Shown here in pieces: positions 190 to 33,600 of a stretch of DNA of 60,000 nucleotides (position 1 is the stretch's first letter; each line of letters starts with the position of its first letter). Position numbers and translations under genes: made by a program. The notes beneath the pieces are model-generated. The model saw nothing but the letters and a program-made list of their open reading frames with translations, did no database searches and was not told the DNA's origin. Location: positions 45,200,001 to 45,260,000 of the forward strand of contig NC_087251.1 in NCBI RefSeq assembly GCF_037042905.1, read 5' to 3'. Source of the DNA: Lytechinus pictus. Its lineage: Eukaryota.

Positions 190-642
190 ACTGAATTTAA
201 TTTTTTTAATGAAATTCAAATCATGTGTTCCACATGTTAATTTGAAACAAAAAAGATAAAGTAGATTTGAAATGCTTGTTTAATAATTCCTTGAACAGGT
301 TTCAACTATGTTTCAAGTAAACTAAAATTTACTCCCATTTTTAAAAAAGTAAAAAAAAGAGGAATATGTATACATATATTCAGTTACGATTTTTAAACAA
401 AAATTATTTTTCCTGGCAACCTATGTTTTACTAGCTATGCTTTATAACAGGTTCCTCATATTTCACATTATTGCATTTCTTTGTCAAACAGAAAATGATA
501 TTTTCGTCATTATGCTTTTTACATGTTCAATAATATGTTTATTTTGTGGAACATGAAACAATAAAAATCAAATCAAATCTGATTTCCATCTCATTATGTT
601 TGAGAGCACATATCATTAGACATAATCGAAATGATAACTTAC

Positions 643-3420
643 CTCAATAATAGGAGTCATATGTCCACCTTCAGAGTGCAAATAGTCCGGTGAGACAGTG
701 ATTGGTGTGCAGCCTTGTGTCTCGGCATCCCGTACCCTGCCATTCTTATCCATCCACAGCACGATGACATCCTTCCAGCTCCCGACCTGATCCTCCTCCA
801 GGTCTTCCGCCTCCAGGTTCTTCCCGCTCTTCAGTTCTTCCACCAGGGTGTTGGTCGCCTCCATCAGGCGGTCGGTGTTATCGGTGCCCTGGGAGTCCAG
901 CTCCCACTTGGATTCCAGTTCCTCGGTGGACAGTAGGAGATCGTTGACCTCCTTCTCCAGCCCCATGATCTCTTCCTTCAGAGCAGCTTCCTCGGGGCTG
1001 TCCTCCGCAGGAGGTGGCACCGACCACAGGTAACACTGCTTGTGCTTCTGGGTGCTCAGGTACTGGTCCAAGTTACCTTCAGAGCAGGCTTCTGCGATCT
1101 GAGAAACGTAACTCATATAGCCCGACTTGTTGAGGGAAGTGTCATTCTCATCCACGACGGTACAAGGGCTGTCAACTTCGGAGAGCTTCAGCGCGTCATG
1201 GGTCGACTTCTCGTCGTCGGTACTCAGCAGCGAGTTGAATCCTGTATCGCAACTACCTGTACAGCTGCCTTCTGTCTGTACCGACTGCGTGTCGGATACA
1301 GAAGATCCAGACTTTCTCTTGTTGCGTTTGTTCTTCTTTGACTTCTTTCCTTGCTCAGGACTCATGATTGCACTCTCTTCCTCGTTGTCTTCTCCCTTCA
1401 GTGCTTTCGATAAAGTATGCTTCACGGCAGCCTGAATACTAGCCAATTCAGTGCAGTCTCTATCACAGTGTGCTTCTCCCGCTGGCCACGTGAAATTGAA
1501 ACTACCAGTACAAGTTTGCATGTAATCCCGCCATAGAGAGTGGCTGAGAGGAAGTGAATCACTTAGCGTTGTATTGCTGGCTGCCTCAATAACTTCCTGT
1601 AAGCCCTCTGATTGGCTACAACTATCTACTTCCTCCATGGAATCTGTTTGTTCGCCTGCGGAGCTTCTCTCCTCCACTGAGTCCAAATCCTCATCATAAC
1701 TTGGCACCATTCTACGGACAATGTTGGACACGATATCAAAACTATCGGACAAGGAATGGGACGTTTTCACTTCTGCTCTACCCAAAGCATCTGAAAAGTC
1801 AGAAAATCTGGAATTTTGCTCAGGACTTCTGTCTTTTTCTTCAGGTGCTATCTGATGCACAAGTTCAGTCACAAAATCCAAAGACTCATACATGTGACTT
1901 AGACTAATACCCGTTATTTCTAAAAGATTATCCTTCTCTTCCTCCTTTTCAGTTGGACCATTTGACCACTGGGAATGTCTCCTCTGACCCAAACTGTGTC
2001 TTCGAAATGGAATGACAGGGGTAGTTTCCTCTTCTTCGCATCTTGGAGAGCTGCTGGCCTCATCATTTGATAACAGAGATGGGAAAAGCCTGGAGCCTTT
2101 GAAAAATGACTGAGCATCAGGCGAGGATGAGAGGCTCTTGAGAGAGGAAAACAAAGAATTGGTTGACGACTCATTTGAGATAGGTGGGAAAAAATGTGGG
2201 TTTTCCTGAGGCCACGTAGAGAGCAGTGTTGGGGATGAAGCAGATGCATCCTCTTCAGAAGAGAAGATGGAATCATCCGCACAGATTTCTGGAAGGTCAT
2301 CTTCCATTCCTTCATGTACCTCCTCCTCTTCTACCTCCTCCTCTTCCTCTTCTTTACTATTCTGTAAGTGAGAGGATTCCTTTCCTTCTGAGCTCCCGTC
2401 AGAAGTAAAGGATTCCATCTCCAAAGAGTCTGGGTATTCTGCCACATCTTCCATGGAACCAATCATCCACCCGGCAAAGTCATCATTGAATTCTTGCGTT
2501 TCTTCCGTGTACATGATATCTAATGGTTGGGTGGTGCTATGGACTGCATCCTCTGTAAAGAAACAATCATCGTCCAGATCTGCGTCATATTCATCTCCGA
2601 TATCTTCATCTGATGCCAAACACTCCAAGGCTTCCTCTGCTTCCTCCGACAGAAAGTCTGAACCAACCGAGTCTAAGCGACCATGGTCTCCTTCAAGATT
2701 TGCTACTGCTTCAGAGTAGGCATTGCACATATTCTCAAAAGACATCTCATCTTCTTTCTCCTCCTCTACCCCATCTCCCTCTTCTATCTTCTGCTCCTCA
2801 ATTTGTCCCTTCAGTGCGGCATGCATCTTTTGAAGATCTTCTGCCTTCAGCATGTGTTCCTCTCTTGGAGACATCGACCAGAACTCCAGGGCTGCTGCTG
2901 CCTTGGAAGTCTTCTCCTCCTCCTGCATCTCATCCTCTACCTCCTGGAGAAAATCCTCCTCAAGCTGAAGATAGGCATCCAGCATCTCGTCCGTGAGCTC
3001 CATGATGTCTGGTGTCTCACTGAGCGGGAGCACCAAGTCATCATCAAGCCCTAGATCACCCTCCTCGTCTTCCTCATCCTTCAACGGAAGATGATCATCA
3101 AAGGCAAAATCCTCAGCAGAGACCTCAGAGGCATCGCTGATGCTGAAGGCATCGTTCTCGGAGAACGCTTCCCTTGCCACCAAGATATCATCATACTCAA
3201 TTGTCCGTCCCTGGTTGTGCATCCTGTTGCCATAGCCATCGACCATGTCATCGTCTTTGGCCCCGGAAGGTTGGAACCTTGAATGGATAAGATGGATGGA
3301 GTTCTCTGACTGAGATAGTTGAGGTTTTGCCTCTTCATGGTCGCTCTCTTCCATGATGAAGGGAAGGTCTGGTGTTATTGACCTCTGCTCATCTCCAGAG
3401 GATGTACCAGAAGAATAGGC
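643..3420 (-). CDS. AKAP6: Giant acidic/Ser-rich exon (926 codons) with a basic NLS-like patch and a C-terminal coiled coil
   Basis: Long ORF 616-3549; acceptor tttcattacag| at 3421-3422; perfect GAG|GTAAGT donor at 642. Confidence 0.88.
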
Positions 3421-3774
3421 CTGTAATGAAAAAAAAACCATATATACCCTGACAAAACTAACCTGAGCAGTACTTAGTAAAGCTAATCTGAATTGAGTCA
3501 CAAATTCCCATATTTTCAACAATAAAAATGAGCAAATTATTATATTCATAAAGATGTAAGATTTCCAAGATTACTTAATGATTTCAACAACAATCATGGC
3601 AAATGAAACAAAGAAACCCTAAATCTCAAGAGATGCATGACTTAAATTGACATAAAATTTCATGCAACTGAAGACATCAGAATCATCATGAGCAATATGT
3701 GGAGAGGGGATGACACAAATGATCATCATCGTTGCATCAATATCACCACCTCCACCTCCACCACCACCACCACC

Positions 3775-6607: not shown

Positions 6608-9600
6608 CCATCACCATCACCATCACCTTCACCTTCATCATCATCACTTTGACTTATTTTTAATACTAAGCTTCTGAGTTTTTTAGCAATGGCCCTATGA
6701 AAGTAGAAACTTTGCACTTGGTACTAGTTGACAATGAAACTTGAAAGAAAACCAATGCCATAACATCAGCTATGCAACAATGTTTGTGACTTCCACTAAA
6801 TCCTAGACCTTCTAACACAAATGTTCGATATTGATTGCAAAGAGCCAAAAACAATTCTGGGCCCCGTCTTACATAGAGTTACGATTTTGAGATGCGCTAT
6901 GTCAAACAAAGGCAGTTCTCTCCTTTGATGGACTCAAGCGTTGCGTTGACATGATACAGATGGATTTCCATAGAGTTACTGCATTTTAAGGTTTACTTAT
7001 TTTCACCAAAGACTGATATGCACATTATGTGCACAATATGAATAAAAGAAATGGTGATGTCACATGCTAGTCTGCAAGCACAGGCTCATATTTGACACTT
7101 CAACCAACAACAGGTCTAGAATGAAGACTAGACTCCAAAGACTCTGTCAGCCAGGCCACAGTATATAGTGAATCTAGTCTCACCAATTCAGAGTCTGCAT
7201 TAAAGGGGAATCCAACCCAAATAAAAACTTGGTTTTATAAGGAAAAGAAAAATCAGACAAGTTGATAGGTGAAAGTTTGAACAATATTGGACAAACAACA
7301 AAAAAGTTATGAATTTTTAAAAGTTGAAAAATATTGGTAATCACTATACCCATGGAGACTTCAAATTGGCCGCATATGGGATGTCATAGTGATGTAAGGC
7401 AAGGACTACTCTTCCATGTACTCCAAAACATATTATGGCTAAAATGTCATTTTCCCCAAAAGTTTTATTTCAAATTATATTTTTCTTTCATTAGGACATA
7501 AAACAATATACTACCTGGGTTATATTTAGATTACTGCCCCAGGGGATTGGGTTCTTAGGAGAAAACCACAAATCCCTGATAATAAAGTACTTGGCCTATA
7601 GGAAAGTTGTCCTTGCCCCTTGTCATAATTTACTTACCCAGTTGCCAATTTGAAATCTACATAGTATTAGTGATCTCAATTTTAAAGCAGCCATAACTTT
7701 CTTATTGCTTGTCAGATTTCTTTCAAACTTTCACCATTCTGTTTAATTTATTTTTCTCTTTCCCAACACAACATTTTATGGCCAAGGCTGGATTCCCCTT
7801 TAAGCACTATGCGAATTGAGAAAACCAAGGGTCTGTGCCTGCAGACTAGTTGCACACTTCATTTATCTCCTGTAATAATAACTTTTTTTGTTAAAAGCAA
7901 AACTTAAAAATACCATGTAGCTTCTTTTTTTACATTCAATTCTTAATGAAATTTCAGTGCTATATTTGTCTTTTTTCGCTCTCTATTTGTTCAAATCAAT
8001 GAGTTATCGGGTGAACTTGTCCTTTATCCCGATTGAAAATAAATCCTTCCTCACCTTGGTGGTTTCCAGAGCTTGCCTGACATGGGATAACATCTCTTCG
8101 GAGTGCGTCCTGATATTCTGCCATCTTCTCTCCACATTGATAGCGCCCAGTTGAAGAGATTCTCTCTCTCGTTGATGGGTGCTGAGATACCAATCGTCGT
8201 CTTGGAGAAGACTGCACAGCTTAAGAACGACGTCGATGCTCTGATTGTTGTGATCTATCTCATCTTTGATATTCTGTTTGAAAAAAAAAAAAACAGTTCA
8301 ATAAGAAAAGTAATCATTTTCTAAATCATTCACTTTATAAGTATATCCATTACCTCAACAATGGTACTCTAGAAGCACATCTAACAATGATATTCAAATC
8401 AAAGTACATATTCTAATGTCCAATGAAAACAAATATTGCTGATACTACAGGGCTAGAGAATAAAATTTCATACAGCCTGATTCTATATAAAAAATTTCTT
8501 TGTGTCATACTTCCTTATAACTGATACTGAATTTATCACATACATGTACATCACATTATTGTGCATTATTAACTCTTAACTGTTCAGGGGTATATTGCTA
8601 ATTTGCATATGTAATTGTCTTACTCCTGTTTAAGTGGGTATAGGGTGCAAAATGTATGGAGGAGAGTATGTAAACCTATATGCCATATGAAAGCTTAGAA
8701 TGTGTAGAATTTAAAAATATGAATATTTTTGCATAATTACGTATGCAAATTAAGTTATGAATATTAATGAGCTAATTATAATACACAAAATATAAAGAAA
8801 TTTTCAGATTTTCCACTTTTGTTGACAACTATTTGCATTTTATTATTAGAAATTCTTCACACAAGCATTACAAGATTTTAGAGCAACTCTTCAGCAATAC
8901 ATGCATGTCATAATTATGTCATACTTTTGACTAAAAGTTGTATTTTTTGTGAATTTAATATTTCACCTTTTTGGGTAAAAATTGTCATAAACTGTGTTGT
9001 AACCAATGACGGAAATAAGGCCTGTCAGTTATAACAGTACAATTAAGTCTGAACTCTTAGGAATAAAATAATTATTCTTTTAAGTTAAATCTGCAAGATA
9101 AGGAGTTTATTTTGATGACAAATATTTGCATGTATATGCAAATTTATGCAAATTACGATACATAATGTACAATTGTACATGTATATGAATATTCATAAGC
9201 CGTCTCCATGTGCACAAACGTATGTCCTGTATACACTCGTGCACAGTATAATCCAAATTTGTGCAGTTTTTGTTTTCATCTTACTGTAATAATTCTATAT
9301 TTGTCTTAAAATATACATTTCAGCATGTTTGAAATATAAATTCTGTAAGCCACATTGTAAAGTGTACAAATCAGTGTATTAATATCACATTTTCCTGATA
9401 TTTGTTCATATATCGTATTAAAATGAATGACAATTTACCATTACAGAATGCGTATTTGTACAAACATTAGTTTGCTTTATGTAATAAACTTTTACTATCA
9501 TTCCTGAATTACAGTACCATTTTGTGTCATTACAGTATTGCTCGGAATAAAGTTGACACCCTTCCGAAGGGTCACGCATCTACCGCGAGACAGGCGTGAC

Positions 9601-12600
9601 CCAAAAAATTACCACCAGCCGATTTCGCGCGTGAAATTCACGCGTCAATTTCACGCATGCAGCTGGCAGAAGAGAGGCCCAATGCTCACGTAAAACACGA
9701 GATTTTTTCAGATTTGATCTCTATTTGTCCATGTAGTTTGCGCCTCAACTCTAGGCACTTTTTGGTCAAAACACGACGCAATCCCGATGCAATCCCGTCG
9801 GTTTACTGACGGATGGTCTAATATCACTTGGTCTAATCATCAGATGGGCTAACAACATTCGGGCTAAACCCACTTAGTCCAATTCTCTTTTAATTCACCA
9901 TCCCGTCATTTGCACTTCAAGATATTCAACCCGATAGACAGCGGGTTGAAAATCCTAAATTCCCAATAGCTAGACAGCGGGTTGAAAAACTGCCTCAAGC
10001 GCGCGCATCAGACGAGTCCCCGCTAGAAATCCATGTGCCCAGCTCCTGACCGAGTGACCCAGTTATAGTTACATATTTGGCTTAAAGGACGAGTAGATTA
10101 TCTTTCCACTGTTTATTTGTGGAGCTAGCTCCATGGTTTATTTTTCAGTGTTTATGTTATCAAAGACGTCTTCCGTTTAAAGGACAAGTCTTGCTTTTTA
10201 TGCAGGTTCCCTCATATTTCACTCTTTTAAATTCTCTTTAATTCCAAATCGCTATTTTCTTTAATTTGAATTAATTGTTATGCCTTGTCTGATTTGTATT
10301 CTCATAAGTTTTCTGATATTGTTTTATAATTTTGTTTGTACTTGTGAAATATGTAAAATAAAGTCAAATCAAATCAAGTAGATAATCTTTTTCTATCTTT
10401 TATTTTTTATCTTTTGTTCTTCAATTCTGTAATTTTAATCAGGTACGTATTTCATTCAAAAGAACAAGTATTTTCATCATTTTTCTATTCATCATTCAAA
10501 GAAGAAGATTCGCTTTCCATCATTTTCTGTTCATTGTTTTTTTTGTTTTTTTTAATCAGTAATACATCGTTCATTTAAAGGACGAGTTGATTTGCTAACC
10601 ATCATTTTCTGTTTATCAATTCTGTTTTTTTTTCAATTTCCTCACTTACGTCTTTTAATCAAAGATTCGCTTTCCATCATTTTTCTGTTCATAAATTCTG
10701 CATTTTTATTTTATCAGTTACGTCGTTCATTCAAAGGACGAGTAGATTTGCTTACCATCATTTTTCTGTTCATTGATTGACCCTTTTTTCATTTAATCAG
10801 TTACGACGTTAATTCAAAGGACGAGTATAATTCAGATTTGAGTTTTATTATGAAGTTATGAAACAGAGATCTAGAATCAAGTTAGAATTAATCATAGTTA
10901 TAGAACATTTAAATTAAAAAAAAACACAACCTGAACCAATGAGATGTGAAATCCATTAAGAATGGAACAGATATTACTAGATTTGCTAACCATCATTTTC
11001 TGTTCATCAATATTCTGTTTTTTTTTTTTCATCACTGACGACTTTTATTCAAAGATTCGCTGTCCATCATTTTCTGTTCATTAATTCTGTATTTTTATTT
11101 TATCAGTTACGTCGTTCATTCAAAGGAAAGTAGATTCGTTTTTCCTAATTTCTGTTCATTATTCAGTTTTTTTTTATAATTTCATCATTTACGTCTTTTA
11201 TTCAAAGAAGATTCGCTTTCAATCATTTTTCTGTTCTATTCTGTATATTTTATCAGTTACATCGTTCATGGCAAGAACGAGTTGATTCCCTTTCCATCAT
11301 TTTTTGAGTTCCATCAATTCTGTGTTTTGTTTTCATTGTTCATCAGTTACGTCTTTTATCTAAAGAAGAAACGCTGTCCATCATTTTTCTGTTCAACAAT
11401 TCTGTATTTTTATTTTATCAGTTACATCGTTCATTCCAAGAACGAGTAGATTCACTTTCCATCATTATGACGTTCAGAGCACGAGTAGATATGCTTTCCA
11501 TTTTCCTGTTCATCAATTCTGTGTTTTAATTTAATCAGTTTCGTCTGTTTATTCAAAGAACGAGTAGATTTGCTTTCCATCATTTTGTGTTTATCAATTC
11601 TGTGTGTTTATTTTATCGGTTACGTCTTTTATTCAAAGATGATTCGCTTCCCATCATTTTTCATTTTTTCGCTATCAATAACAGTTGATTTTATACCCAA
11701 AGATATTAATTTACAATATCATCATCATCATTTGTATATTTATTCTCCTCATTCAATTCTTCTTATGTCTTTCACTTCTTTTTGTTCCTGTTCTTCTTTC
11801 TTTACCTTTATCTTTACCATGTTCATTCGTTCATCCACCATATCATCTGTTGCTTCTCTCTTATCCTTATCTTCTTTATCCTTTATTTCTTTCTCTTAGC
11901 CGTCGTCTTCTTCCTCTTACTTTGCCCACTTTTCTCTTCGATCGGCTATCTTGAACCCCCCCCCCCCTTCCCGGAAAAAGAATACCCGCAAGTGGCCCTG
12001 CTTTAAATGCCTAGCATCAGCACTTTCTGAAAAATCTTATTCAGTCCCCGCCCCCCCTTGTATCTTCCTTAAATATTTTTTTTTGCATGTTGTGTTACTC
12101 TGTTCCCTTTCTCTCCGTCCATCATTCCAGCAACAGCCCCCCCCCCCTATAAGTAATATATCGTCTTTTTACGCCCGCCCGTATAAGACGAGACGTAACT
12201 TGGTATCACGCTCGGTATCCGTCTGTCCCTCCATTCGTTAACATTTCCTTATAAACATGATAACTCCAGTTTAACTTAACCCGAGGTTTATATTATTTGG
12301 TGTGTATATGATACAAGCGTCAAAAGGTCAAGTCACCACCTTCCACTTTTTTTGCTTGACCAATATACTCCATTTTCCGTGTAACCCGAGCGAACACAAA
12401 AACATTGACAAAATATCAAAAAAATGTTTGGTAAAACATGAAAATGTTTAAGGGAAATGTTAAAATCATATAACATGTATGGTTTTCTCAATGCTATAAT
12501 ACATTTTCCTAACGTTTAGCATTTAAAACGTATTTCCCTAATGTATTTTAGTAATATTAATAAAATGTTGCAATGATATATTTTTACGAATTGACTCGTT

Positions 12601-15600
12601 TTAATCCATGTGCATATATATTATCTCTTGCTAATTTGTTTATTTATATTCATTTTATGTTGCCCTGTGTACTGTTCGTCTATATATAGAACAGACAACC
12701 TGGACTTATTGTAATTGTTTCTCTTTTTATCAAGAACAGGTGATTTTATAAAAAAAAATATAATTCATTTTCAATATCAACATCTTCCTCCTTATCATTT
12801 TTCTCATGGCCATCGTCGTGTCTCTCATCACCACTCCGGGCCCCCAAATGCCGACTATATTGGACAATTTGGGGGTGGGCATTGATCATAGACTGGCTTA
12901 ATCACTGATCAGTGGGCCGGCTTAATACATGTTCTATTCAAACAGTTACACAAAAGATCATTGTGTAACTTACAGTCTTCTCATTGTTAGCTGTTCTATA
13001 ATCTTCACACCTCTATTCATTGTCCACAAAACGCGCCAGACGGTGTAATTAATTGACCCAAGTCAAGTCCACATATAGCTAGGGTTGTTCAATTCAACCA
13101 CGTTTCAAGAGTAATTAATATACGAGTAGACATTCCTGATCTTATCTAATATCTGTATAAAAATGTACACATTAGATAGGGAAGATTGATACTGAAGAAA
13201 TAAAACAATGTAAGAGTCTTGTACCGTCATATTATACATGTATGACTGATGGAACGATTGAAGTTAAAGAGAAATGCGAGAGAAGAAAGGAAAGAATGAT
13301 CTGAAGAAATAAAATAATTAAATGTATATAGACTTAAAAGAGATTGAACAAGAACGGTAGAAGAATAAAAGATAAGACAATAACAATTGATAGTGAATAA
13401 AATAAAGGGATAGACGTAGAAGATATTCAACAAAAAATTAAGAGCGATAGAAGAAAAGAGGACCGAAACTATTGATATTGAATAATAAAATAAAGGGATT
13501 GACTTAATAGAGATTAAGAGAAATTAAGATATATATATATAGCAGGCGTATGTGTACGTGTAGAACAAGAGAGGTTGATACTGACTAAATGAAAGCAAAT
13601 GATGGATAAATTGGAACGACTGATAAGAAAAGAAATACATGTAACCCATCCCCTCACCCATGCTGATGCCAGGCCGTCCTCGACTATACCCGATGTTCAA
13701 ACTATAACTATGTTGTGCATTAAATGAATAAGGTAAGTTTGTCTTTCCACATTTCTAGCTGATTGTTTTACTTTAATCATTTTTCATACACATTCATGAA
13801 AAACGTACTGCGCAATTTAATGTCATTTAATTGGATATATTTCTTTTTTTTTATTTAAGTATATTGCCACTTCCGGACATATTGTTTCCATTGTTTTATT
13901 GCTTGGTTTTCCCTCATTCGCTCCCTCAATAATTTTAATCACATCATATCACTACTGAAGTTTAGGGGTGGATCCAGCTTTTTCAACGGGGCCCGGGGGT
14001 TGTATGCTTATTCAGTAAAATCTTACAAGTTGATAAAAAATGAGTTTCACTCCCAAATAAAGGCAATATATTCCACGAAAAATCTGAACATAAAAGCAAA
14101 AAGAAACCTAAACGAAAAAAAGTCAGTTCATGGCCGTATGCAGCGGGGGGGGGGGGGGGGATATATTGAAAACTTAATATTTTATTTTTTTTACAAAATT
14201 AATTAAAGGCATGCACGAAATGCTTCAATTGCCCTTTACAGAATGGAAAGACGCAATGACAAGCACGGTCACTTTTCTCACTTCCTTTCAATTTTTTTTT
14301 TATTTTATGCATCTTGCCCACCCCCCCCCCCTACCCGCGAAAAATTTCTGCATACGGCCATGGGTCAGTTCACTTATGTATGTCCGATATTTACCACAAC
14401 AAATATTTTAATGACTCTCGATTGAAAGGGGGAGGGTGCTTATGCCCCCCCCCCCATCCTCTACGGCTCAAATTCACATTTTTTTTAATTTCAAAATTTT
14501 GCTTGTTTCGATTTCAAATGGGATTTTCAATTTCAGAAAAAAAATCCTTAGTACTTGTTCCCATTCTTTATAAAGTTCTCGCTATGCCTCTTAGAACTTG
14601 TTTTTTGTAGTATTTCTCGTTGATATTAGGCATAATCTATTCATTTTATTTTACTCCTAAATCATACTATAATTAAAAGAAAAAATCCATCTCGTGCGAG
14701 TACTCGTTTATGCTTTTGCAGATACCGTACCAGAAATGCACGAGCTCGAAAGAAAATCAGATTGCTCGAACTAAGTTACAACAAAATCACCAAATAGAAA
14801 GTATTTCGTGCTTTTTGTGCTATCCCAGTGATTGTTACTGAATCTAAACTCATTCTCTTCGGTAAAATGATACAGGTATTGTATTTTTTTAATGATGGAC
14901 GTCCATTTTAGAGACAAATCGGAAGTATATGCACTGTCACTGTCCTCTCTGCCTCTGCTCACATGTACCGCCTACTGGTACCGTAGTGTACCGTACGGTG
15001 ACTACCTAGCTTAGCTACCGTATACTATTCTCGTACTACTACTAGTGACAGTGTGATGATCATGGTAGCTAGCTAGCTAGTACTTAGTAGTACAATTCTT
15101 CAAGACTTAAGTTTAGCCCAGGCCTAGCGTTGATCGTATACCCATATATGCTTACTTTGTCTTTGTGGCAATGCAGATATCGACGAGTGAGATATATGTA
15201 ATAAGCACATTACAATTACAAGCCTTCACAAGCAATTTTAATAATGTTGATTCTACTCGATTGTCATAATGTAAATGTCCAGTCAGATCCTTTTTATGCC
15301 CAGTCGCCATATTATTACCAAGTTAGTAAAGATCTAGTACCACTAAAGATCTATTTGAGAATATCGACTAGGAGTAGGATTGTAGATCTAGTCTAACCCA
15401 TGCTCATGATTATGACAGTGCAGAGCTCCGATTTACCTCTATTCTGGATATGCTATCATAAAGAAATACGAAACCTGCATCATTGGACTGAAGAAGAGTA
15501 AGTCTACAACATGCACATACTAACGTTAGGTCTACATTTTTTAAAATACAGACAGCAAATTAACAATTACAATGTAAATGTTAATTTGCTGTCTGTATTT

Positions 15601-18600
15601 TAAAAAGATGTAGACCTGACGTTAGTACGTGCACATGGGCGAATTTGTAAGCAAACATAACCGAAGATATAATACTTACAGTTAATCAGGCCAATGTGAT
15701 CCATTGTCTGACTTCAGTGGTTTATCTTTGTGCCTTCAGGCTAATCCACCGTTGGGTCTTAGTTAAGACCAAATCTTTACTTATATTGACAAATATACAT
15801 CTATATATCAAATCAAATGCATGTTTCTAAGGAATGATAAGGGAAAAAATGAGTCGAGCAAGCATTAGCGTACCTACGGGGGGAGGGGGCAGAGGGTACA
15901 GACTGCCCCCCCCCCCCTGATGAGTCACGACCCATGCAAGAGACGTATCCCTGCCCCCCCCCCCTAACGAGCGAGCGAGATACAGATGGCCGCTCCTTTA
16001 AACTTGAAGACCTTTTTTTGGTCAATTTCTTTCTGATATGAAATCCGTAATTTGTGGTTGAAAGCCCTTTATTTTTATTTTTCTTGTCAAAATTTTTCCT
16101 GGTATAATATCTTTTATTTCTGGTCGAAGACCTTTTTTTTTTTCTTGTCAATTTTTTTGACGAATTTGCCCCCCCCCCCCCTTTGGAAAATCCTAGGTAC
16201 GCCACTGCGAGCAAGAGATGACAGCAGAGGTGACGTGATTCAGTGAGAGGAGAGAATATAAAAACAATTCTGAAAACTACCATTTGAACAATGAAGATTA
16301 ATAAAAATTGATAAAGATATATGGTTATGACAATCGGGTGACAATAAATTGACACTTAAATTTTTTTTTCTTTGTTAATTCATAAACACCAGATTGAGCG
16401 TCGCATAACAAAAAAAAAACACATACACACAACAAAAGGGATTCAAAAGGATTGAGAAGAGTGGAGTAGAAAAAAAGGGTAGGGATCGAGGGAGAAGTGA
16501 GCTGAGATAGCGATAGAGTAGAAATTCAAGAGTGAGACATGGGTCAAATGGAAATATATCAACATCAAAAACGATAAAAAATAAAATATGAGGAAACAAG
16601 GGAAAAGAACACTGATTGTAATTAAGCATGAGTCAGGGACAATCAAATTAAGCCCTGTACGTCCTGTGTTTGTGTGACTGGATCGAGTGGTGGGAGAAAA
16701 AAAGGAGTTTATCATTCCTTATATCATAATGGCGGAAGAATGTTTGGCAATAATGCACTGAAAATATGATGAAATTAAATCATTCTGGTTGCAAACAAAG
16801 TAAGAGAATGACGATAAAGGAATGTAAGGAAATAAACAATAGGTCTGTTTTTTCCAGCCTCGGCGTCTCTTGCTTAAAGGACTAGTCCACCCCAACAAAA
16901 ACTTGATTTGAATAAATAGAGAAAAATTCAACAAGCATAACACTGAAAATTTCATCAAAATCGGATGTAAAATAAGAAAGTTATGATAGTTTAAAGTTTC
17001 GCTTCATTTCACAAAACAGTTATATGCACATCTCGGTTGGTATGCAAATGAGGGAACTGATGACATCACTCACTCACTATTTCTTTTGTATTTTATTATA
17101 TGAAATATGAAATATTTTGATTTTCTCGTCATTGTCATGGGAAATGAAGTTTCATTCCTCCCTGAACACGTGGAATTCCATTATTTTAACATTTTGTGCT
17201 TCAGGCAAGGAGGTCCTAATCATCAAATTCGTAAAAATTGAAATACATGTAGAATTCAAACAATAAAAAACAAAAGAAATAGTGAGTGAATGACATCATT
17301 GACTCTCTCATTTGCTTGTAACTGGCTCGTTCACATAACTATTTTGTTAAAAATAAGCGAAACTTTGAAATGTCATAACTTTTTTATTTTACATCCGATT
17401 TTGATGAAATTTTCAGCATTGTGCTTGTCTGATTTTTCTCTATTGATTCAAATCAACATTTTTCTGAGGTGGACTTGACCTTTAATCTAGCCACCCCGCC
17501 CCCCTTTCTCTCCATTTTCTTTTGCTCTCTCTCTCTTGATCATTTCCCCCTCCATCTGTCTCTCGTATCTTTCGCTCTCTCCTTCTCTTGCTCGACTCTG
17601 TCCATTCTTATCTTGGATGCTCTATTTTCTTATAACTATTAACTACTTATCCCAGAAAGTACGTACGTGATCTCATCTCGACCCGACTTTCATTCAACGA
17701 AGTTCAGAAAGATGTAAATTTGAGGGCGATGACACGAGCGTGCATTAAAATTGTGCACTCGCGCCAAGCTCAACAGCTCTATGATCTTTTTTTGTTTGGG
17801 TTTCGAGGAGACGGCATCTTACGGCAATAAGTTGTTGCATGCTGTACATCGTAATTTCGAGAGAGACATCGCGGCAAGTCAGCAGGGCTAATTCGAGCCA
17901 TGTGAGTTGTCCAAATGGTGACATTTTATTAGTTATCAAATCAATATCTCTTCGACAGAAGATCGTCCCTCCTTCTGCGGTATTATCGCGGTAATACACG
18001 AGATTTTCATTTAAAAATCTCGTGGTACATTACCGTGGTAATTTCTCTCAGAGCGCGACTCCCGCCGATGGAAATTTGCTGGTGGTAATCGCGCGCGACC
18101 CGATTTCACATCGACTTACGCGGTACAGCGCGGTAAAGCGTCAACTTTATTCCGAGCAATACTGTATTTCTGTAACAATTCTTCAGAATAAATTAACCAG
18201 AAATCCCAATACATTTACAATCATTGATGATGTATAATGTGAGTTGTACCAATTCACACGAAGAATTTTAAGTCATTCACATACTGAACAGAACTTGACT
18301 ACCAATGATTTAAAATTCAAATTGAGAGGCTTTTTAACCTCCTCAAACATTAGTTTGCATTATGTAATAAACTTTTACTATCATTCCTGAATTACAGTAC
18401 AATATTGTGTCATTATATCTGTAACAATTCTTGAGAATAAATTAAATTAGTAATGTCACATTAACCAGAAATCCCAATACATTTACAATCATTGATGATG
18501 TATAATGTGAGTTGTACCAATTCACACGAAGAATTCTAATTCATTCACACGAAGAATTCTAATTCATTCATATACTGAACAGAACTTGACTACCAATGTT

Positions 18601-21600
18601 TTAAAATTTAAATTGAGAGGCTTTTTAACCTCCTCAAACATTAGTTTGCATTATGTAATAAACTTTTACTATCATTCCTGAATTACAGTACAATATTGTG
18701 TCATTATATCTGTAACATTTCTTGAGAATAAATTAAATTAGTAATGTCACATTAACCAGAAATCCCAATACATTTACAATCATTGATGATGTATAATGTG
18801 AGTTGTACCAATTCACACGAAGAATTCTAAAATCCATTCATTCACATACTGAAAAGAACTTGACTACCAATGTTTTATATCGAGAGGTTTTTTAACCTCC
18901 TCAATCTGGAATGAAATATAACTCAGTTTGATACCATAAATAATGCAAACATACATGTAACAAAACTCAAACTTCATGATGCTGAGCCTGGGATTTATGC
19001 CACTCTCTGAAGCAGTTTCTTTTGGCATTGAAACAGAGAAATACAGCACAAGTTTCACATTTTACACTTGATTTCACCTCAACCTTTAGTTTCCGAAAGC
19101 ACACCTGACAGTTTCTTCGCGTCATTGTCCAATCTGGCATATGCTTAGGCTCAGCATCATCCTTGTCCTGTTTATCATGTTTGGTTTGTGAAAACAAAGG
19201 GACTTCTGTTTCATCAGTAATGTCTCCTAACTGACAAGCAAGCTCTTCCCTAAATTCAAGCTGCAGATAGGTGGATCCACGTTGTAATTCAACATTATTT
19301 GGGTACTGCTGTTGAAATAGTTTGAATAGGATATATGAATTCACAACTGCTATGTCCACCATATGGTAAAACAAGGTTTTCCACCATTTTATTGTTTTTC
19401 TCAAAGTATCATATTTACCAATTAACTGGTCCGAGCGATCAACGCCATTCATGAAACGATTATAGTCTTGGAAAGCATTAGGTTGGCGTACAATATGGCG
19501 TGAAAATTTACCATTCACTTTTACCCTCCGGAGAGTATGACTGGCTGCATCAGCTTGGTGAATTGTAGACATTAAGGTCACCGTTTTATTGTCTTTCCAT
19601 TGCATAGTCAAAACAGGTCCATCCCTGTCCCATCGCATTTGTCCCTTCTTTGATTTTTTTGCCCATGATTTAAATGTTTTCTTGAAATGCGATGGAAAGT
19701 CTTTCCTGTTGGCGAGGGCCGTGCCACATGCTAATATACCACTAGCTTTCAAATCTCTGAAAAGTCTTGATGTAGTGTAAAAATTGTCACAGTACAGATG
19801 GTACCCCTGATTGATAAGCTTCTCACATAAACGAATGACGACATCATATGCCAGACCATGTTGCACCCCTTCAGCTTTGCGACCCGTGTAGACCTCAAAT
19901 TTGCATGTATAACCATTTGCCGAATCCGCGAGGACCCATAATTTAAATCCAAACTTTGTTGGTTTATCGCGGATATACATCCTGAACTTAAAACGTCCCT
20001 TTGAACGGACCATTCGTTCATCAATTGAGATGTTTTGAAACGGTTGATACAACTCCTGACACATGTTGTTAATGTGGTCAATAAGAAAGCGAACTTTTGC
20101 CAAGGGATCACCTTCCTCTTCATCCGTGGGATCAACCACATGAAGAAAGCTATTGATAGCTTTGTATCGATTCTTAGTCATAAAGGAACGCGCCCATATC
20201 CCATGATAGAGCGTTTTGGTTGACCAGTAACGATCTATATTCGGCAGCTGGACAAAGCCCATATATATCAGAAGACCAATGAAAGAATACAATTCATCCG
20301 GTGTAACATACGTGAAAGATCCATCACTATTTAGATAACTTTGCCCGTGATCTTTTCTTGCATTGATGAGAGCATAGGCATTTGTGAAATAGCAGATTTC
20401 TTCAATTATTGAGAGAGTAAAAAACAACTTGAAGAAGTCAACTGCCTTGGTGAACTGTGATGCTGATTTTCGGGTGCGAATTGAAGAAATTTGTACGCCT
20501 GCTTGACGATGGGGTAGGAAAAACCGAACCTCCTTTTTTGATGGTCCTGCATGATCCGTCTCATCGTAGCTTTTGTCCCCAATGTTGATTCTGATAATGA
20601 ATTAAAAAGAAAATAAGGTTGATAAAGTTTTAAAAAGTAAACAACTCAGTATTTCCATGATCTCATTTCCAATCACTCAAGTAAATTGAAATCAAATCGG
20701 ACATCGGCATGTGTTGAACATTATTTGTCACTTCTCCTCACTTTCGGCCGGCGTGGCTTACGGCCGCTGTCTGCGCAAAATGAAACTGTAATCAGCTATT
20801 TCATGGGAATATGCTGAGGTAGGCCTACATTGGCATTTAAATATGGAAAGCAAAGAAGTCAATGTAAGGATTAGTTAAGCAAGCCGTTATTTGAAAGACA
20901 CGATGCCTTATCATATTCCTGTAAAATTGATAGCCAATACATTTTGTGCGGATGGCCAAGAATGAAGAGCAACAACTACGGTACCGTAGTCTGAGACTCT
21001 GACATGTCTGAAACAACCTCAGATTTGATTCTTCCCAATGTCCGAGTTAAGTTCAATTTATGAAAGTGATTGGGAATGAGAAATTCAGGAATTTCTGTAA
21101 TTTGGGTGGAATTTCGTTTGGTGAAATTCAAAATACGATACTGCTTTAGCGCCGTGGTTACTCTGACCATAACTTACACAATATACTACATATGGGACCG
21201 TGATATGGCATTTACTGTGATACAGCAATCTGATCTATGCATCATGAACACAGTGAAGAAATGACATAATTTGCTGTCAGACATTTAAAAAAAATCTGGA
21301 ATAGTGGGTCTAATATGAAAATAAATGTTTACTTAGCGGAATCATGTCACTTATGACCTCGAAATAAGTTCCAAAATAAAGAAAAAACGGGTTTCAGATC
21401 ATTCTAGACGTACTGAATATTCCGATCGATCGTACACAAAAACAGCTGTTGGCTGATGCAAAAGCCCCACTTCCGGGTTGACACATTCGAATGTAAACAA
21501 ACAAAAACAACAATTTTCTACAATTTGGCCAGGAATATTGCCAAAAGATCATAAATCTAAGATTTAAAATACATTTCGAATAATTTGTATAGCTTTTTTC

Positions 21601-24600
21601 AATAAAATATAACGATTTACTTACGTGATTTTAGGCCGTTTTGAAGACAACACGTCTGTCCCGTCACGTGAAGCTGAACTTACTGAAGAGTTATCATCAT
21701 CGTCACTACTGCTAGTGAAACAATCACTCAAATCTTCGCTTGAATTTGACAAATCTGGGGCATTATTTCCATAGTCGATGTCATCCGATGGTAAATTGGT
21801 GTCATTACTTGACAATAATCCCAGTTTCATGGCCATATTTGATGATTTGAGCATAAATTTTTACGATAGATGATGCTTATGTCTCACCGAAACCCGTACA
21901 GTCGTCGCACATACAGGCGCGTAGTGTGTGAATTTACTACCGCTTGCCGAGAATGACCTTTTGGAGGGGTTCGGGGTTGAGGTATTTGCCGATCGTTTCC
22001 GAAGTATTCCGGCTATTTCCATATATGGTGTACCATCCGAAAGCTTGGAAATAGCCGAAGAGAATGATATGTCATTCGGCTATTTACGATAATACATGGC
22101 TATTCAACTCAAGATTTAGTTTCGTGTTACATTTGGATCGTTCATATATGAACGATTTTGGACACGCTGAACGGGTAAGAGTTAATAACCATTTTTATCA
22201 ATATAAAAGTTCTACATTACCCCAATCCTACCAGAGAATAAATAGCCATTTTCATGATAATTATAGAAATCGTCAACATGAAAACATTATATCCATTCAT
22301 AGAAATTAAATGCATCATTCATCATGAACTGAGGAATGACTAGTAACTAAAATCAAGCACAATAACTGCTGCATTCACAGATAGAGAACAAAAATTTGAT
22401 TCGATGAAATTAAAAAAAAGGAAGTTCAAGCATATAAGTGTAATAACAAATTGTTTGACAGCATCTTAATTTCAATTTCAGTTACACTGGGAAATTTATA
22501 CACATCCAAAGATATGCATCTTCAATACTACACATTTCCTCCACAACATGTTTTTGTTATAAACTAAGTATCGTTTCCTGATGTTTTGAAAATAAACTGA
22601 AAAACATATTCTAATTTCATCAGACAAATTTGTAGGTTGGATTGATAACTGCAATGATATAGTCTTAAGGTTGTGTATTCTGACCAAGCCTCCAAACATA
22701 ATGGCCCGAATTCACAAAGGTGGTGTTGAAAACCACCGGTTGAACCCATGGTTAATGCAGATTTTCTGTATCAATTACGCTTAATTTGCCGCGTATACTG
22801 AAAAGTGTCCAATGCTGATGCGTGCTTTGGTCACAGTGCGCAAAATTGATGCCTGTTGCCATGGTTAAGTATGCTATTTTATTTATGAGTCCACTGTTTT
22901 GAATTAATGAGCTTACTGTTAAAACAGTGGACATTTTTTAATATACGCGGTAAATAAGCGTAATTTATACAGGAAATCTGCATATACCATGGGTTTAACC
23001 GATGGTTTTAAAAACCACCTTTGTGAATTCGGGCCAATGGGAACAATCCCTCTGTTCCTGTACTAAAGTTTTCAAGGACCAGTAGATTATTTTACCCTCT
23101 TATCAACAGTATATGTTTAAATGATGTCACTTTCAAGGTCAATGATACTAACCCATTACACGTACATTAGGACCTTGTTCTCATCTTCTTTCTTAAACCA
23201 GTTCAGTAAAAAAAAAACCAGTTTAGTGGAAACCAGTTTAATGTGTATAGGAACGCTTGAAGCAGCCTTGGAAGTGATCTTACGTGGTCTTGCAAACCTT
23301 GTGACGTGGTTTTCAAGACCGCTTTGCCTCGTTAAACTGGTTTAAGCGTAGGTGAGGATATGACCAGCCTTTGAGAAGTGATCTTTACCCAGAAGTACAA
23401 TAGTTTGTGCACATTAGGAATGCTACTCAGAAGTTAAGTACATTAGCCTACATTGCAGTTTCAAATTTCATGTGAAACATTTGACCCCCCATGAGAGCAT
23501 TCCCATAGCAACAAGATTGCAGGACGTGAATTGGTTTTGGAAATCAGTTCAGGAGATTGTGATGAGAATAAAAAAATAAACCTTCAAAATATTTTGTTGA
23601 CAGTATGAATATATTTCTTCACTATATCACAGCTCACTTAATAATGAGAAAAAAAAAAAATACAATCATACTTTCAACATATTCCTTTACTGGCCTTATA
23701 TTCATTCATCTACATTCATATCACAATTTATTTCATAAGTGAATAGTTTGTATTGAAATGTTAATATGGATCTGTTATGTTATGTTTTCATGTTTTGTTT
23801 TGTTATGTCTTAGGGCTGTTTGGGAAACAAGAATATTGTTGAAAAAGCTACCCTGATTAGAAAAAACAAAACAAATAAATGAAATAAGATAAAAAATTAT
23901 TATCATATAAGACCACTAACCTGAAGAGATCTTAGTCTTGTTTCCAGCTGGCTGACGTCCGACATATCACCGTCCGTCTCAAACAATCTCCCTTCGATCT
24001 GCGTCAACCATGTCCTCAGCTGACCGATCACATCCTCGACCTCCAACGCCATGCTCATGGCCTGCTCCGCGCTGCCAAATACACATGCAGCTGGACTCCT
24101 GTCGAGGAAGAACGAAGGAATGTAAACAACGCTTTACAATGTAGCTTTACATAGGTTATTCCCACCCAGCCTCTTAAAAGATCAATCCTCACACAAGGAG
24201 CTTCTAATGTGAAACTTCATATACTGTACATGTACGTACTTACCGTTATAAAAGCTGGACGAATTAAAACAAGTGTTATTTCAATCAGAGTCTCGGTTGC
24301 ATTATATTGTATGCAATAACAATGACTTTCTATCGATACTGTCGACTAGCTCATTTCCTTATAAACCGTATTGTTTTGGTCTGTCTTTCTCACTTTCTCT
24401 CTCTGTGTTGTTGTTTTTATGCTTTAAGTGGAAGTTACCATTCAAGCTTAGTTTTAAATGAAGTATAATTCTTCTGAAGACTTTACAATGCACAGAGGTC
24501 AATCCCCCAAAGTCAGTATCATTCATAAATTAGAGCACAATGACCGTTCAACCTGCAAGGTCAAATACACATCCTATATCCACATTACCCATATACAACA

Positions 24601-27600: not shown

Positions 27601-30600
27601 TTCAACCCTCACCCAACCAACTTTCTTCAGCGTTGACGTCAAAAGAGATAAGTAATAGTTAGATAATATAAAATGAGATAAATGGTATGCACAATTTGTA
27701 AAAGAAATCATGTTATGCATACATGTACATTTTTCGTCATGACTGCAAAGTGCAAAAGAAATGTCAACAGTGTATACGGATGAGAGAGGACAAAGTCTTG
27801 GTCCACATCATTTTTATAAAGGAGCTTAAAATAAATTTTTAAAAGACTGTTTATGAGTTTTATCAAGAACATTGTCTTGCTTAACCCCTCCCCCTCGTCA
27901 TGACATATTACATCTGAGTTTGACACTCTCCAGGCAGCATCCAAAATAATTTCATCACTCAAGTCAATATTTTTGAGGAAGGCTCCCCCAGTCCCCTCTC
28001 TAACAGCTAATAATGATTAATCCAACTGCGGGGGTATAAATACATTTGCGGCTTCATAACCATCCAGATGAGATTGCAAGCTACATACTTGGTATCTATT
28101 TCAATCAGCCTAATGAACGGCCCTGTAACATGAAAGGGAATTTCATTCTTGGTCTCATATTTCAGACTAGTTTGTACCCGGGTTTAAGACACCACGTTCA
28201 TCAGCATGGAGCATTGTAAAAATATGAAAAATATCAATGTTCCTAAATGTAGTCTTCAAAGAGTGATTTGAAATGATTTTAAATCTTCACATCAAAATCT
28301 ATTGTTATTCATTGGTGTGAAATTAAAAAGATTACAAAAAAAAAACCTCTGAAAATGTTCAAAGCATTTAGTCAATTAACATACACTTCAAAACTTCAGG
28401 AAAACACAATATGAAATTACTTGCAAAGACTAGACAATAATTTTGCTATTAAACCAAAATTGATAAACACTCTTGGTCATTAAGGAAAAAGCTCTAAATT
28501 CAGTCCTAAGTTTTTTTGCTCAGTGTTTAAAAAATGTGGAGCAAACTGCAACGTGATACCACCAAAATTATTCCCTGAAGACCTAGAAAAAGGAAATTTT
28601 AACAAAACTAGGTACTGTAGATGTACATATTATAAAGTCTGAAAAATAGACTAGATTTTTTATATGGTTTTCTATTTTCAAGTTCACTGGCAACATAGGA
28701 ATTTGAACTGAGGGAACTGAACTGAATTTGAACACGGTGACCTAACGCACACGGAATGCATATTGAGAACATGTAAGCCAAATATTGCATACAAGGAAGA
28801 GGGAAGCTGATACCGGTATGGAGATGAGATTTCCGCTTTATCTATCACCACCTTATCATCTGACCTGAAGTGCAATTACACCCTGTCCCTGTAATCATTA
28901 TAACAAATTCTTTCCCAGCAAATATATGGAAATCATATATACCATGCACAGACAGAACTCTGGATATATTGTTTTGCCTAATCATCTGCCCCCACCCCCC
29001 CCCCACAAAAATCCCCCCCCCCAAAAGGAATGTATGATTAAAACAAAGAATTTGTTTTTTATGAAACAAATCAACTAGAACTGAAAAACACCTTTTAATA
29101 ATGTCATATTTGATATGAAAGAAAAATGTGTTGTTTGTTGAACCAATGAAATGGAAAATCAAACTAACTTTTTTTTCCGCAGCATTCAGAGCGAACCAAA
29201 TAGTATCAAAATAATAATCATTTTTCCTCCTCGTAATGTACAAATGACATTCAAAATTCAATAGCACAACTTCCCTATTATAAGATAACACAAGTGTTAA
29301 TCAAAATAAATGTACATCAGTACATGTCATTCTGTTTTAAATTTGGTGACAGAAATAAGTAGCCTCTAGCAATTTCTCCATTTCGATATTTTATTTCAGT
29401 GCAAGAAAAGAGAAGAAATTTCATGTTTGAAAACTCCAAGCATTGCTTTTAAGATTTTATAATAATTTGTTTTAAAAATATGTGATCCTTTTATTAAAAT
29501 GATAATTAGGCATTGTTGAGTTCTTTTTTTAAACTATGCAAAAATTCTCCCATTCCCTGTAGTGCATAACACCTGCAGAAAAAGAAAGGCTTATTGTTCC
29601 CATGTAACAATAATTGCTATTTCTCGTAAATCTACCATCAATGCAAAACAGTGACACGACATATGTTCCTGCAACATTTGCTCCAATCTTGATATTTTCA
29701 GGGGGCATGGGGTTAGAGTTTGGATTTTAAAAGAGTTTGATTTATTCAGCTCAAGTACACCCAGCCTTTTTGTAGAGTGAACTTCTACATGTACAGTATG
29801 TTCCCATGAACCATCCGTATTTGGAATACTCTCCCAAACGCTGCTGTAACTTCGACCTCTATAGCTGGCTTCCGGGGAGCAACATTGCCTATCATTCAGC
29901 AAATGTTGCCTCCCCCTCCCCTTAAGATGCTGTAAGAGGGACACACACGCACCACCCGCACACTGCACCTAGCACACTGTATATAGTGCACCAAGAATAC
30001 CACCACAGGATCACCACATCACCTGAAGCACTGGCAGCACCTGACACAGCACAACCCTCTCCAGGACAGCGTGTACGCTTTTTGGGAGAGTACTTCTTCA
30101 AGGTTCAAAATAATGTAAAGATAAAGCATTTATCTAGTTTTGAAAGTTAGGTTTTATGTTTGGCTTATCATGCAGATTTTCCATTTGTTGCCAGAGCAAA
30201 TGTATCATGGAACCATTCAAAATGCCATGGCATTAATATATATGCAACTGCCAACCAAAACCAATAATGATAGCATTTTGATCCTGATAACAAAAAGCGC
30301 ATTAATTGTATATATTTATTGCAGCATGATGCACCAAGACTTGATTACAGATCCACTTTTAAGCTTAAAATGAGAAATGTTAGGTCAAACTCTGCAAATA
30401 GAACAGATATTTTTAGCATTCTGGAAATGGGTGGATGTAAATGGATGAGATTTAATACATGGATTCAAGTATCTTTACCTTGCACATGTGCTGCTTATGA
30501 TGTTCGGAGACTCGCATATCAGCGCTGTCTGACACGGCCAGGTGCATGTCATTCAACCAATCAGAGAGCTCGTTATAGAGTACTTCAAACTCGGGGCTTG

Positions 30601-33600
30601 AGCTCAGCGACGAGCTGTTGCTGGTACATGATGGTGAGAACCTGGGCAGAAAATGAAAGACATGGGAGGATGAAATCAGCGTTGCTGTCAAACATCTATG
30701 ACAGCCTTGAACAGGCTGGAAACACACCCAGTACTGCAAAAGGATTGGTATGAATATAAACAAATTAATATTTTTTACCTAATATTTTCAGTCATCTATA
30801 CATTTGCCTGTATACCATCTAAAAAGAGATAATTAAATTAAAGAAATCAATGACAATTCAAAAGATACCATTTTATACATTAATAGACTAACTGCTATAT
30901 AAATTATGTATTCATGAACACTTTGTCGGCTTCCCGCAAGAAGGGACTTTATTACTGTGCTTTTAGCAGCTAGTGTATTATCATTTTCTTTCCAAATTCT
31001 CAAACTTTCTGACAAAGAAAGATTTTTTCTTAATTGATATTTTGTGACTTTATTTAAAACAATCTAGATGCTTTCTAATGTTGAGAATGAATTCCGTACA
31101 CCCCTTTTCCGGGAAGGAAAATACTCAATCCACTGATCAAGTTCCCAGAAAAAAGTCGCTAATGCGAAATCCAGTTCCCAGAAAAAGGCCGCTAGCGCGA
31201 AAAGGTCTATGTGCGTGAGCTCATTGTACAAAGAACTGGTTTTTTTCTGGGAACGAAAGACGCAATCCAGTTTAATAAGAAAATGGGCGCATCTATGCGT
31301 AAACCACATTGGCATGTTTTTGCTTATTACGTCATAATGACGTCACATTTAGGTTAAAGAATGGTACACGAAGAAAGTTCCTGACATGCTTTTTCCATTT
31401 CAGCAATAAAAAAAATTCTTTAAAGAAAATGTTGATAAGTCCCTTCTTGCGGGAAGCTGACAGCTTTATAGGTTCCAGGGGCCTGTAACACAAAGGTTAG
31501 CAATTAATTGCATTCTTGATTTACTTGATTAATATTGTAGTCCCTGTATTAAATGCAATCAATCGTAAAAAAATTATATGTTGATTGCTATTGCTTTGTG
31601 CTACGTAACGTTGAGGCCCGGAAGGAAAACCCGGCTTGAACCCGGACCAGAAGGTTTAGCAAAACAAATTTCTAACTCGCCTTTTTCCCCCAATGTGAAC
31701 GGAAATTTTCAGCCCCGCGAGACGAGTCTGATTCGCCTTTTCTGTCCCAGCAAAAAGGTAGGATCAGACCAGCGAGCTGGGGGAGACAGGGCAATTTTCT
31801 TGCAGTGTGGACGGAAAGCCGAGTCTACCCCGGCAATTGATTGTGAACTGCCGCTTTATTAGAGTTTTGTTTTTCTACGCACGCATTCCGTCCAGAGTAC
31901 ACTCGATTTTATGCAGTTTTCAGTCGTTAATTTTCAAGGCAAGCGCATGCCAGAGTTTGTTTACATCATGGTTTACATATTTATCGCGGAGGATTGTGGA
32001 TAATTGGCGGAGCAGACCCGCGAGGCAAGTCTGTTCCGCTAGCTGGGGCTAAATGTGAACGCGAGAGAGAAGACCCCACGGCGAGCCGAGGCTGACTCGC
32101 GAGGCGAGTCTGATCCGCGAGCTGGGGCTAAGTGAGAACGCGGTATATGTCATATCATCCACATCATAACAGCTTTAGGATGTACATTTTCATCACTTGA
32201 ATTTTGACAGGCAATTTAGGGGGATTCAGCAAAATCTTAAAATGGGGACATTTGAACTACTCTTCTATTTCTCCCCAAAACCGGTTTCAACATGCTGTGC
32301 CAGTGTACACATTTTATTAGTCAACTTTGAAGTTTGTACTCATTTCAACAAACATTTCCTTTTCTAGGCAGATTGCTTTACTACCTATTCCCCCAATCAA
32401 ACTTCAAACAATGTTGTACAAACACAATGTCTATGAATAATGGTGCAATTATGCTTTCAGAAAGCAGGAAGTAGAATAAGTTACATATTTTTGTTTTCTT
32501 CCCAAGCTAAACTAAAAGTTAATTACAAATGCCATCAATCACTTGAATAATTAAAATGGCACAGGAAAATCAATGTAAGTTTAGAGTGTTTTGAAGTAGC
32601 AAATTTGTATAGGAATTCATATCTAAAGGTTAAGGAATCATGTTTTCATTTCATAGTTCATACCGCATCCTGGTACCGGAAATAACATCAGACATGTCTT
32701 TAAATTGAATTTGATATATTTAGCTTCAATACTCCAGGCTCTAATTTAGGTACTTTGGCTAAGAGCAAAGAAACCAAGCGAGCAGAATAATTCAATTAAG
32801 AATATTTTGTGTTTGACGAAGGCATACATTAGTGCTTGATCAAATTGGAGAAATATTCCATACAGTAGCTGTGTTAATGAAATTCCTTTTTTGGGGGGTT
32901 TAATTTAAGATACCATCTTGGGTAATCAATTTTGAGGTTATCCAGGTGATATATATTGAAGGTATACTGTACATTAGTGCTTGCCTAAATGGAGAAGTAT
33001 TCCATACAGTAGTTGTGTTAATAAAATTTCATTTCATTTTTTTTTGTTAAGTTTGAGATACCATCTTGGGTAATCAATTTTGAGGTTATACCTGTCAGGT
33101 GATATTGATCAAGATCTCGTTTGATTCGTAGGTCAATACTTTCAGGACGACACCCAGGCTCAAAGAGACTCTTTTTTTAATGCTTGATTGCAACGGTCAC
33201 TTATAATATGCTCCAGTCTCATCGGCGAGACCGACTCCTGGGTCCCGTAACACCAAGCTCTAATAGCGATTAATCGTACACTTGATTTCCACAATTGAAG
33301 GTCAAGTCCACCCCAGAAAAATGTTGATTTGAATAAATAAATCAAACTAGCTTAATGCTGAAAATTTCATCGAAATTGGATGTGAAATAAGAAAGTTATG
33401 ACATTCTAAAGTTTCGCTTATTTTCCACAAAACAGTGATAAGCACAATTCAGAGACATGCAAACGAGACAGTTATGATATCCCTCACTCACTATTTCTTT
33501 TGTTTTTTATAGTTTGAATTATACAATATTCCATTTTTTACAAATTTGACAATATAAGGACCACCTTGACTGAACCATATAGTATTAAACTATGCTAGTT

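Follow-up and report, generated by a model that had tools for sequence, protein, structure and literature searches.

The window analysed here is a 60,000-nucleotide stretch of the Lytechinus pictus genome (NC_087251.1, positions 45,200,001 to 45,260,000). It contains an 8.6-kb segment, positions 9533–18164, that lies between perfect terminal inverted repeats (TIRs) in the 3′ region of a piggyBac transposon. This locus raises the question of whether the segment carries captured host DNA, as Pack-type elements do, or an interior of its own. An earlier reading of the letters alone (the sequence-only reading) had favoured the former, regarding the segment as an animal analogue of plant Pack-TIR elements that moved recently with its load already inside. 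The segment is a real, recently mobile and unusually long non-autonomous TIR element with pogo-like ends, and it carries non-essential DNA like a Pack element. The interior has the look of a body long shared within the family and crowded with smaller repeats, not of demonstrated host capture. With a probability of about 0.7, it is a copy of a long-lived non-autonomous family of cut-and-paste DNA transposons, approximately 8.0 kb long without its latest nested MITE (miniature inverted-repeat transposable element), and most likely a member of the IS630/Tc1/mariner-pogo group.

Ends and coding content of the element

The left TIR (9533–9557, forward orientation, starting with CAGTA) and the right TIR (18140–18164, reverse orientation) are reverse complements over 25 of 25 bp. 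At up to three mismatches, the 25-bp sequence has only these two matches in the window, and none of 100 shuffles yielded two. A TA flanks each TIR (9531–9532 and 18165–18166), and the piggyBac 3′ region provides an empty-site control, i.e., two uninterrupted 291-bp sister repeat units (18252–18830) that each hold one TA only. When the left and right flanks are rejoined with a single TA, they align over their whole length with both sister units, relative to which the interrupted unit has a deletion of 19 bp and a small number of substitutions; the insert amounts to 8632 bases plus one TA. This alignment bears out the perfect TIRs, the TA duplication and the internal control described by the sequence-only reading, and the 8.6-kb stretch is a real TA-flanked copy of one transposable element. 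TA ends are found in other copies too, in contigs of the sequencing runs X1, X11 and X9 described below, and contigs from two runs stop exactly at the right TA. The empty-site joint from 9532 to 18167 was not seen in other individuals among the best-supported rows, which comprise 15 of 516 joints and 23 records.

Beyond the 25 bp, the two ends are alike in short motifs only. Within 210 bases of the element ends, the motif TACC[AG]C, which does not occur in the TIR itself, is present nine times facing inward and never outward, with two copies in the left subterminal region (9558–9742, forward) and seven in the right (17955–18139, reverse). In 500 shuffles, no degenerate 6-mer of this kind exceeded six occurrences; to allow for the post hoc choice of the motif, the best 6-mer of each shuffle was taken. 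An identical 12-bp word also lies exactly 75 bases from each end, a same-offset 12-mer having occurred in none of 2000 shuffles, and an 11-bp word of the left region is common to the right end. Since the inward array is shared, both ends are parts of one element. The array had been overlooked in the sequence-only reading. In the run from organism C, one site becomes a perfect motif palindrome through a changed letter at 18036; as a single site, this is only suggestive.

The interior has no detectable coding content. Six-frame Pfam analysis of the element interior, read through stops, returned no family at E ≤ 10, in line with the earlier claim that no transposase lies inside, and it detected no exon-like piece, a result that small exons of unprofiled genes could escape. 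No Rfam match was obtained within the window. Compared with the rest of the window, the element matches only the copies of a TTAA-flanked palindromic MITE (14 rows), which we take to be Kolobok-type, and one 35-bp low-complexity row. No donor locus for the interior is present in the rest of the window; in the sequencing runs, a single-copy parent would be hidden by the multi-copy interior.

Copies in public sequencing runs

Contigs from public runs were aligned to positions 8000–18545 of the window at 88% likeness. Some words of the element occur in 20 of the 24 runs listed, which carry organism labels A, B and C, and four runs were compared (X1, X9, X11 and X23); among X10–X20, whose shares were small, the comparison covered X11. 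Contig depth is no copy number, a caveat of the tool that applies to all values below. In X9 (organism B, labelled as DNA with a query mark), all 25 bins that touch the element showed depth, against none of the five flank bins, which include the host exon. The eight listed pieces, extending from 9530 to 16877, show 25 substitutions in 3490 bases (approximately 99% identity), and their depth ranges from 2.9 to 8.7, with the ends not in excess. This pattern would reflect coverage so thin that multi-copy DNA alone is assembled. One X9 contig extends 33 letters beyond the left TA into unlike sequence and thus marks a different insertion site, and another departs from the window sequence at 13021.

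The same body is present in a diverged relative. In X11 (organism C, also labelled as DNA with a query mark), the host exon contig has a depth of 45.3 and is 3% diverged, and a host intron contig has a depth of 12.4 and is 8.6% diverged. The element contigs reach depths of 363–933, i.e., 8–21 times that of the host exon (933 at 9544–9702, then 363, 537 and 589, 567 at 14503–14868, and approximately 700 at the right end), and the lowest bin inside the element is at 156. That the ends and the middle are equally deep points to some 10–20 full-length copies, a figure to be taken as an order of magnitude only. The element contigs are 6–11% diverged from the window, similar to the host intron contig, which fits inheritance from a common ancestor, and indels of one or two bases are scattered over the whole interior. 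The segments 12750–13200 and 14700–15800, put forward by the sequence-only reading as unique, are multi-copy in this run.

In X1 (organism A, run kind unknown), a 1152-base contig with seven substitutions joins 16873 to 17482 without the TTAA MITE. Because a copy only 0.6% away is without it, this MITE entered the lineage of the present copy after the body existed, and at least one nested insertion is therefore late. The contig stops exactly at the right TA, with a depth of 49 against 1.6 in the flank bin. A further X1 contig, 2.1% diverged, spans 14445–15877 and reaches 15 letters into the nested MITE at 15863–16207, which is too few for bridging. Near-identical copies thus exist elsewhere: copies diverged by 0.2–2.1% contain the interior and have different flanks, which upholds the earlier proposal of a recent move with most of the interior inside. 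The contrary case, in which other copies lack the interior and the nested MITEs are young and specific to this locus, is at odds with X9, X11 and X1, where the interior is common to other copies, although the TTAA MITE is a late insertion. Whereas MITEs are short and of very high copy number, the element measures 8.6 kb, and its depth is approximately three orders of magnitude under that of the nested TTAA MITE.

X23 is an RNA run, of which approximately 6 in 100 reads were examined; its depth of about 0–7 outside known high-copy repeats is too thin to decide. At 17504–18207, its reads come from one strand, the same as that of the host exon, and share variants with the X1 contig, at a depth of 1–2.

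Mobility and origin of the interior

Under the proposed mechanism, a transposase encoded elsewhere would bind the 25-bp ends, probably aided by the inward subterminal motifs, excise the whole 8 kb and reinsert it at a TA. If the ends alone are needed, the interior would be free to grow through serial insertion of small repeats and tandem expansion, and surviving additions would pass to daughter copies. The body would then resemble intergenic DNA with decayed MITEs, and the ends would stay perfect. The present copy would have inserted in the 3′ repeat of the piggyBac, and the TTAA MITE would later have entered this copy or its immediate parent. Since an unconstrained body would gain repeats that its daughters inherit, perfect ends around decayed inner repeats would need no capture event.

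The TA duplication and the 25-bp TIR starting with CAGTA would fit the pogo superfamily, an assignment that rests on the ends. Among the rows of Table S1 of Gao et al. 2020 (PMC7386202) that were compared (16 of the 214 places matching a single word, and three echinoderm rows), pogoR elements have TA duplications and TIRs of 21–34 bp, many of which start with CAGTA, and pogoR is present in echinoderms (three rows, 3.9–4.7 kb). The element shares with pogoR the TA duplication and a short TIR (type 1, up to 40 bp) with a CAGT[AGC] start, and by a by-eye count the housefly pogoR TIR has 11 of the first 13 letters of the element TIR (PMC7386202); three words from the inner TIR occur in no row of the table. 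In contrast to pogoR, which has a DDE_1 transposase with a CENP-B/Tc5 helix-turn-helix, the element is without a transposase. Binding at the subterminal motifs is suggested by analogy with the transposase Lemi1, which binds both the TIRs and the asymmetric subterminal repeats of Emigrant (Loot 2006, PMC1636448). Emigrant is likewise a pogo-like non-autonomous element with TIRs and asymmetric subterminal repeats, but it is a MITE of small size, whose subterminal repeats equal the 3′ half of its TIR.

Several points weigh against the assignment to a long-lived family of this kind. No contig among those listed spans the whole element, and the case for full-length sisters comes from even depth. 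The exon baseline in X11 is one contig, and the intron contig is at only 12.4. In X1, depth is 41–49 at the ends and 3.6–8 in the middle, a step that fits shorter derivatives without approximately 12.1–16.2 kb and equally fits expression or assay bias. About half of the interior is of no identified origin. As for an autonomous partner, the TIR patterns were unmatched in viral contigs, metagenome contigs and prokaryote genomes, and the superfamily is unproven. With 8.0–8.6 kb, the element exceeds the published length of the pogo superfamily (1.2–5.2 kb, a descriptive range for autonomous members; PMC7386202) and also that of Tc1/mariner (1–5 kb), for which efficiency is reported to drop with cargo size (PMC2874221); these ranges agree with the earlier remark that TA/CAGT-ended Tc1-mariner-pogo elements are usually a few kb long. 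Moreover, the subterminal repeats of the pogoR rows (PMC7386202) and of Emigrant (PMC1636448) copy the inner TIR, a common trait rather than a formal criterion, and those of the element do not. No description of the family was found in the literature; Repbase and Dfam lay outside the search, and the family may be catalogued there.

Pack-type capture of host DNA, as claimed by the sequence-only reading, was not demonstrated: half of the interior consists of nested repeats and arrays, and the TTAA MITE was inserted later. As in a Pack-TIR, the two ends are those of a single TIR element that has a target-site duplication, and no transposase is found inside. Animal Pack-TIRs likewise hold non-transposase DNA between both ends of one TIR element, with TcMariner as a common carrier (PMC8277862). 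Since 370 of them have been reported in 100 animal genomes, including 115 TcMariner and four that are multi-copy in reference genomes (Tan 2021, PMC8277862), the idea of an animal counterpart to a plant phenomenon has been overtaken. Their definition includes an unambiguous parental locus of at least 90% identity and an interior of 100–5000 bp (PMC8277862), whereas the element has no known parent and an 8.5-kb interior that many copies share in a diverged relative. The Pack-TYPE elements of plants, including Pack-Mariner, are also non-autonomous, larger than MITEs and moved in trans, but they contain fragments of coding genes (Gisby and Catoni 2022, PMC8903248); none was detected in the element, which has no Pfam match and shows indels throughout the interior in organism C.

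An older capture is an alternative. A short element, made up of the left ~2.6 kb and the right ~1.4 kb, could have taken up approximately 4 kb of host DNA, intronic or intergenic and already carrying MITEs, before the split from organism C, the enlarged form staying mobile as a multi-copy Pack-TIR. The depth step in X1 (41–49 at the ends against 3.6–8 at 12.5–15.9 kb) hints at such a short form, the right-end reads of X23 share variants with the X1 contig, the decayed repeats are mostly clustered in the middle, and multi-copy animal Pack-TIRs are on record (PMC8277862). Yet both DNA-labelled runs show similar depth in the middle and at the ends, there is no donor within the window, and six-frame Pfam revealed no exon-like piece. 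Nested repeats, furthermore, have been shown to enter copies afterwards, as seen for the TTAA MITE and the X9 contig departing at 13021, and this origin is considered unlikely. Just as doubtful is a broader proposal in which a pogo-ended, TA-targeting family has moved an 8-kb non-coding load since before the species split, past the reported Tc1/mariner efficiency limit, by means of an extra DNA-binding activity at the subterminal motifs; the middle 4 kb would be ancient captured host DNA and the helper a naturally high-capacity transposase.

Slightly less probable still is derivation by deletion from a large autonomous element that was intron-rich or had two genes; the body would be leftover introns and untranslated regions, and a second protein, a helper, would bind the subterminal motif, as in En/Spm. 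The motif array is indeed distinct from the TIR, splice-like sites occur in the sequence, and intron-rich Tc1-like elements of 2.2–11.5 kb, mostly without TIRs, are described in molluscs (bioRxiv 656579). However, no trace of a Pfam family is left in six frames, the organism C indels are scattered over the interior, and no GT..AG joint is found among the best 15 of 516 joints. A chance arrangement of two independent short MITEs, inverted and flanking ordinary DNA, is very hard to sustain. Although the ends share little past the 25 bp and the short motifs, the rejoined flanks form a continuous repeat unit holding one TA, the right TIR is tied to 16410, and the left TIR to 10061, by single contigs, and depth in the DNA-labelled runs is no greater at the ends than inside; this case, which the sequence-only reading had itself raised, is contradicted by the linked contigs and by alignment to the empty site. 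A Fanzor-carrying Mariner element (PMC3627910) was considered for its size and dropped, as no such frame occurs in the element.

The locus offers a clean case of a gene-less transposon coming to resemble captured genome through the entry of small repeats one at a time, with one such entry caught as presence or absence between near-identical copies, and it calls for caution in naming Pack elements from a single locus. Should a pogo-type enzyme serve as the helper, this would be natural transport of 8 kb, against the efficiency loss with cargo reported for Tc1/mariner (PMC2874221). If the helper is found, it would be a candidate large-cargo tool and would permit a test of the role of the subterminal motifs.

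Nested repeats and the host locus

Nested repeats and tandem arrays account for 4276 of the 8632 bases of the element, which measures 8024 bp without the TTAA MITE. The structures named by the sequence-only reading, i.e., two MITEs with 8-bp flanks, the TTAA MITE, a minisatellite and a hairpin, were confirmed; its hAT, Kolobok and HINE labels are putative, drawn from end structure rather than from a library match. From left to right, the interior contains a decayed minisatellite of ~80-bp units (10380–11670), whose array length varies in organism C, where joints skip 222 and 855 bases. It is followed by the remnant of a high-copy repeat (12163–12340), presumably HINE/Helentron-like, with a depth peak in the runs and loose ends at 12323, and by a remnant of another repeat recognised in the sequence (12381–12600), with what we take to be a CCCAG-type end. 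The 590-bp segment 12919–13508 is tandem in a contig of organism C, with a joint from 13508 to 12919 at a depth of 888, and a decayed 88-bp tandem array, overlooked earlier, occupies 13276–13529.

The nested MITE at 14129–14362 has a perfect 15-bp TIR and 8-bp flanks alike at 7 of 8 positions, and that at 15863–16207, which coincides with a depth peak, has an identical 8-bp duplication and a TIR with 3 mismatches in 16; both are hAT-type by the length of the target-site duplication. An old nested element (14845–15506) is marked by decayed inverted arms (14845–14939 and 15413–15506, 73% over 97 bp); it falls within a segment earlier taken as unique, where it had been overlooked. A palindromic hairpin repeat (15509–15637) lies next to it. 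The TTAA MITE itself, missing from the copy 0.6% diverged, occupies 16878–17481.

The TTAA MITE family has five copies in the window, one of them partial, which are 70–82% alike (16874–17485, 33295–33912, 47004–47577, 48058–48645 and 7878–8026), and no other sequence comes near its depth in any of the four runs compared. A second TTAA-flanked element, with long inverted ends, is located at 7201–7802 and has a sister near 35086–35182. The array at 41476–42399, composed of 163-bp and 192-bp units rich in TGACCTT, resembles the remnant at 12163–12340 and is presumably a Helentron-associated satellite. Related palindromic repeats lie in inverted orientation at 22706–23038 and 51902–52206 (86–93% over ~95 bp), and the segment 38981–39558, with inverted 90-bp arms that are 99% complementary and 398 bases apart, is a young MITE.

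The host piggyBac (8573–22181, minus strand) is flanked by TTAA on both sides. Its 544-amino-acid open frame (18967–20601, minus strand) matches Pfam DDE_Tnp_1_7 with an E value of 2.4e-91, and the catalytic triad D194/D272/D388 is kept, as judged by alignment to piggyBat, so that the frame is intact-looking, as had been claimed. A candidate first exon is open from an ATG at 21836 to 21625, and arithmetic puts the donor at 21625 in phase with the acceptor at 20590. The piggyBac ends start with CTCTT and are alike at 13 of 15 positions; usual piggyBac ends start with CCC. The 291-bp tandem repeat lies in its 3′ region.

Since the piggyBac is flanked by open minus-strand exon-like frames at approximately 8046–8276 and 23915–24094, it is probably located in a host intron. 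Against Pfam, the host exons gave sub-threshold matches only. The exon-like frames of this large minus-strand gene (616–3570, 8046–8276, 23915–24094, 30452–30778 and 42391–42951) include a 984-amino-acid acidic frame that matches nothing in Pfam, and helical exons whose Spectrin match is below threshold (E 0.013); the gene may be AKAP6/klarsicht-like.

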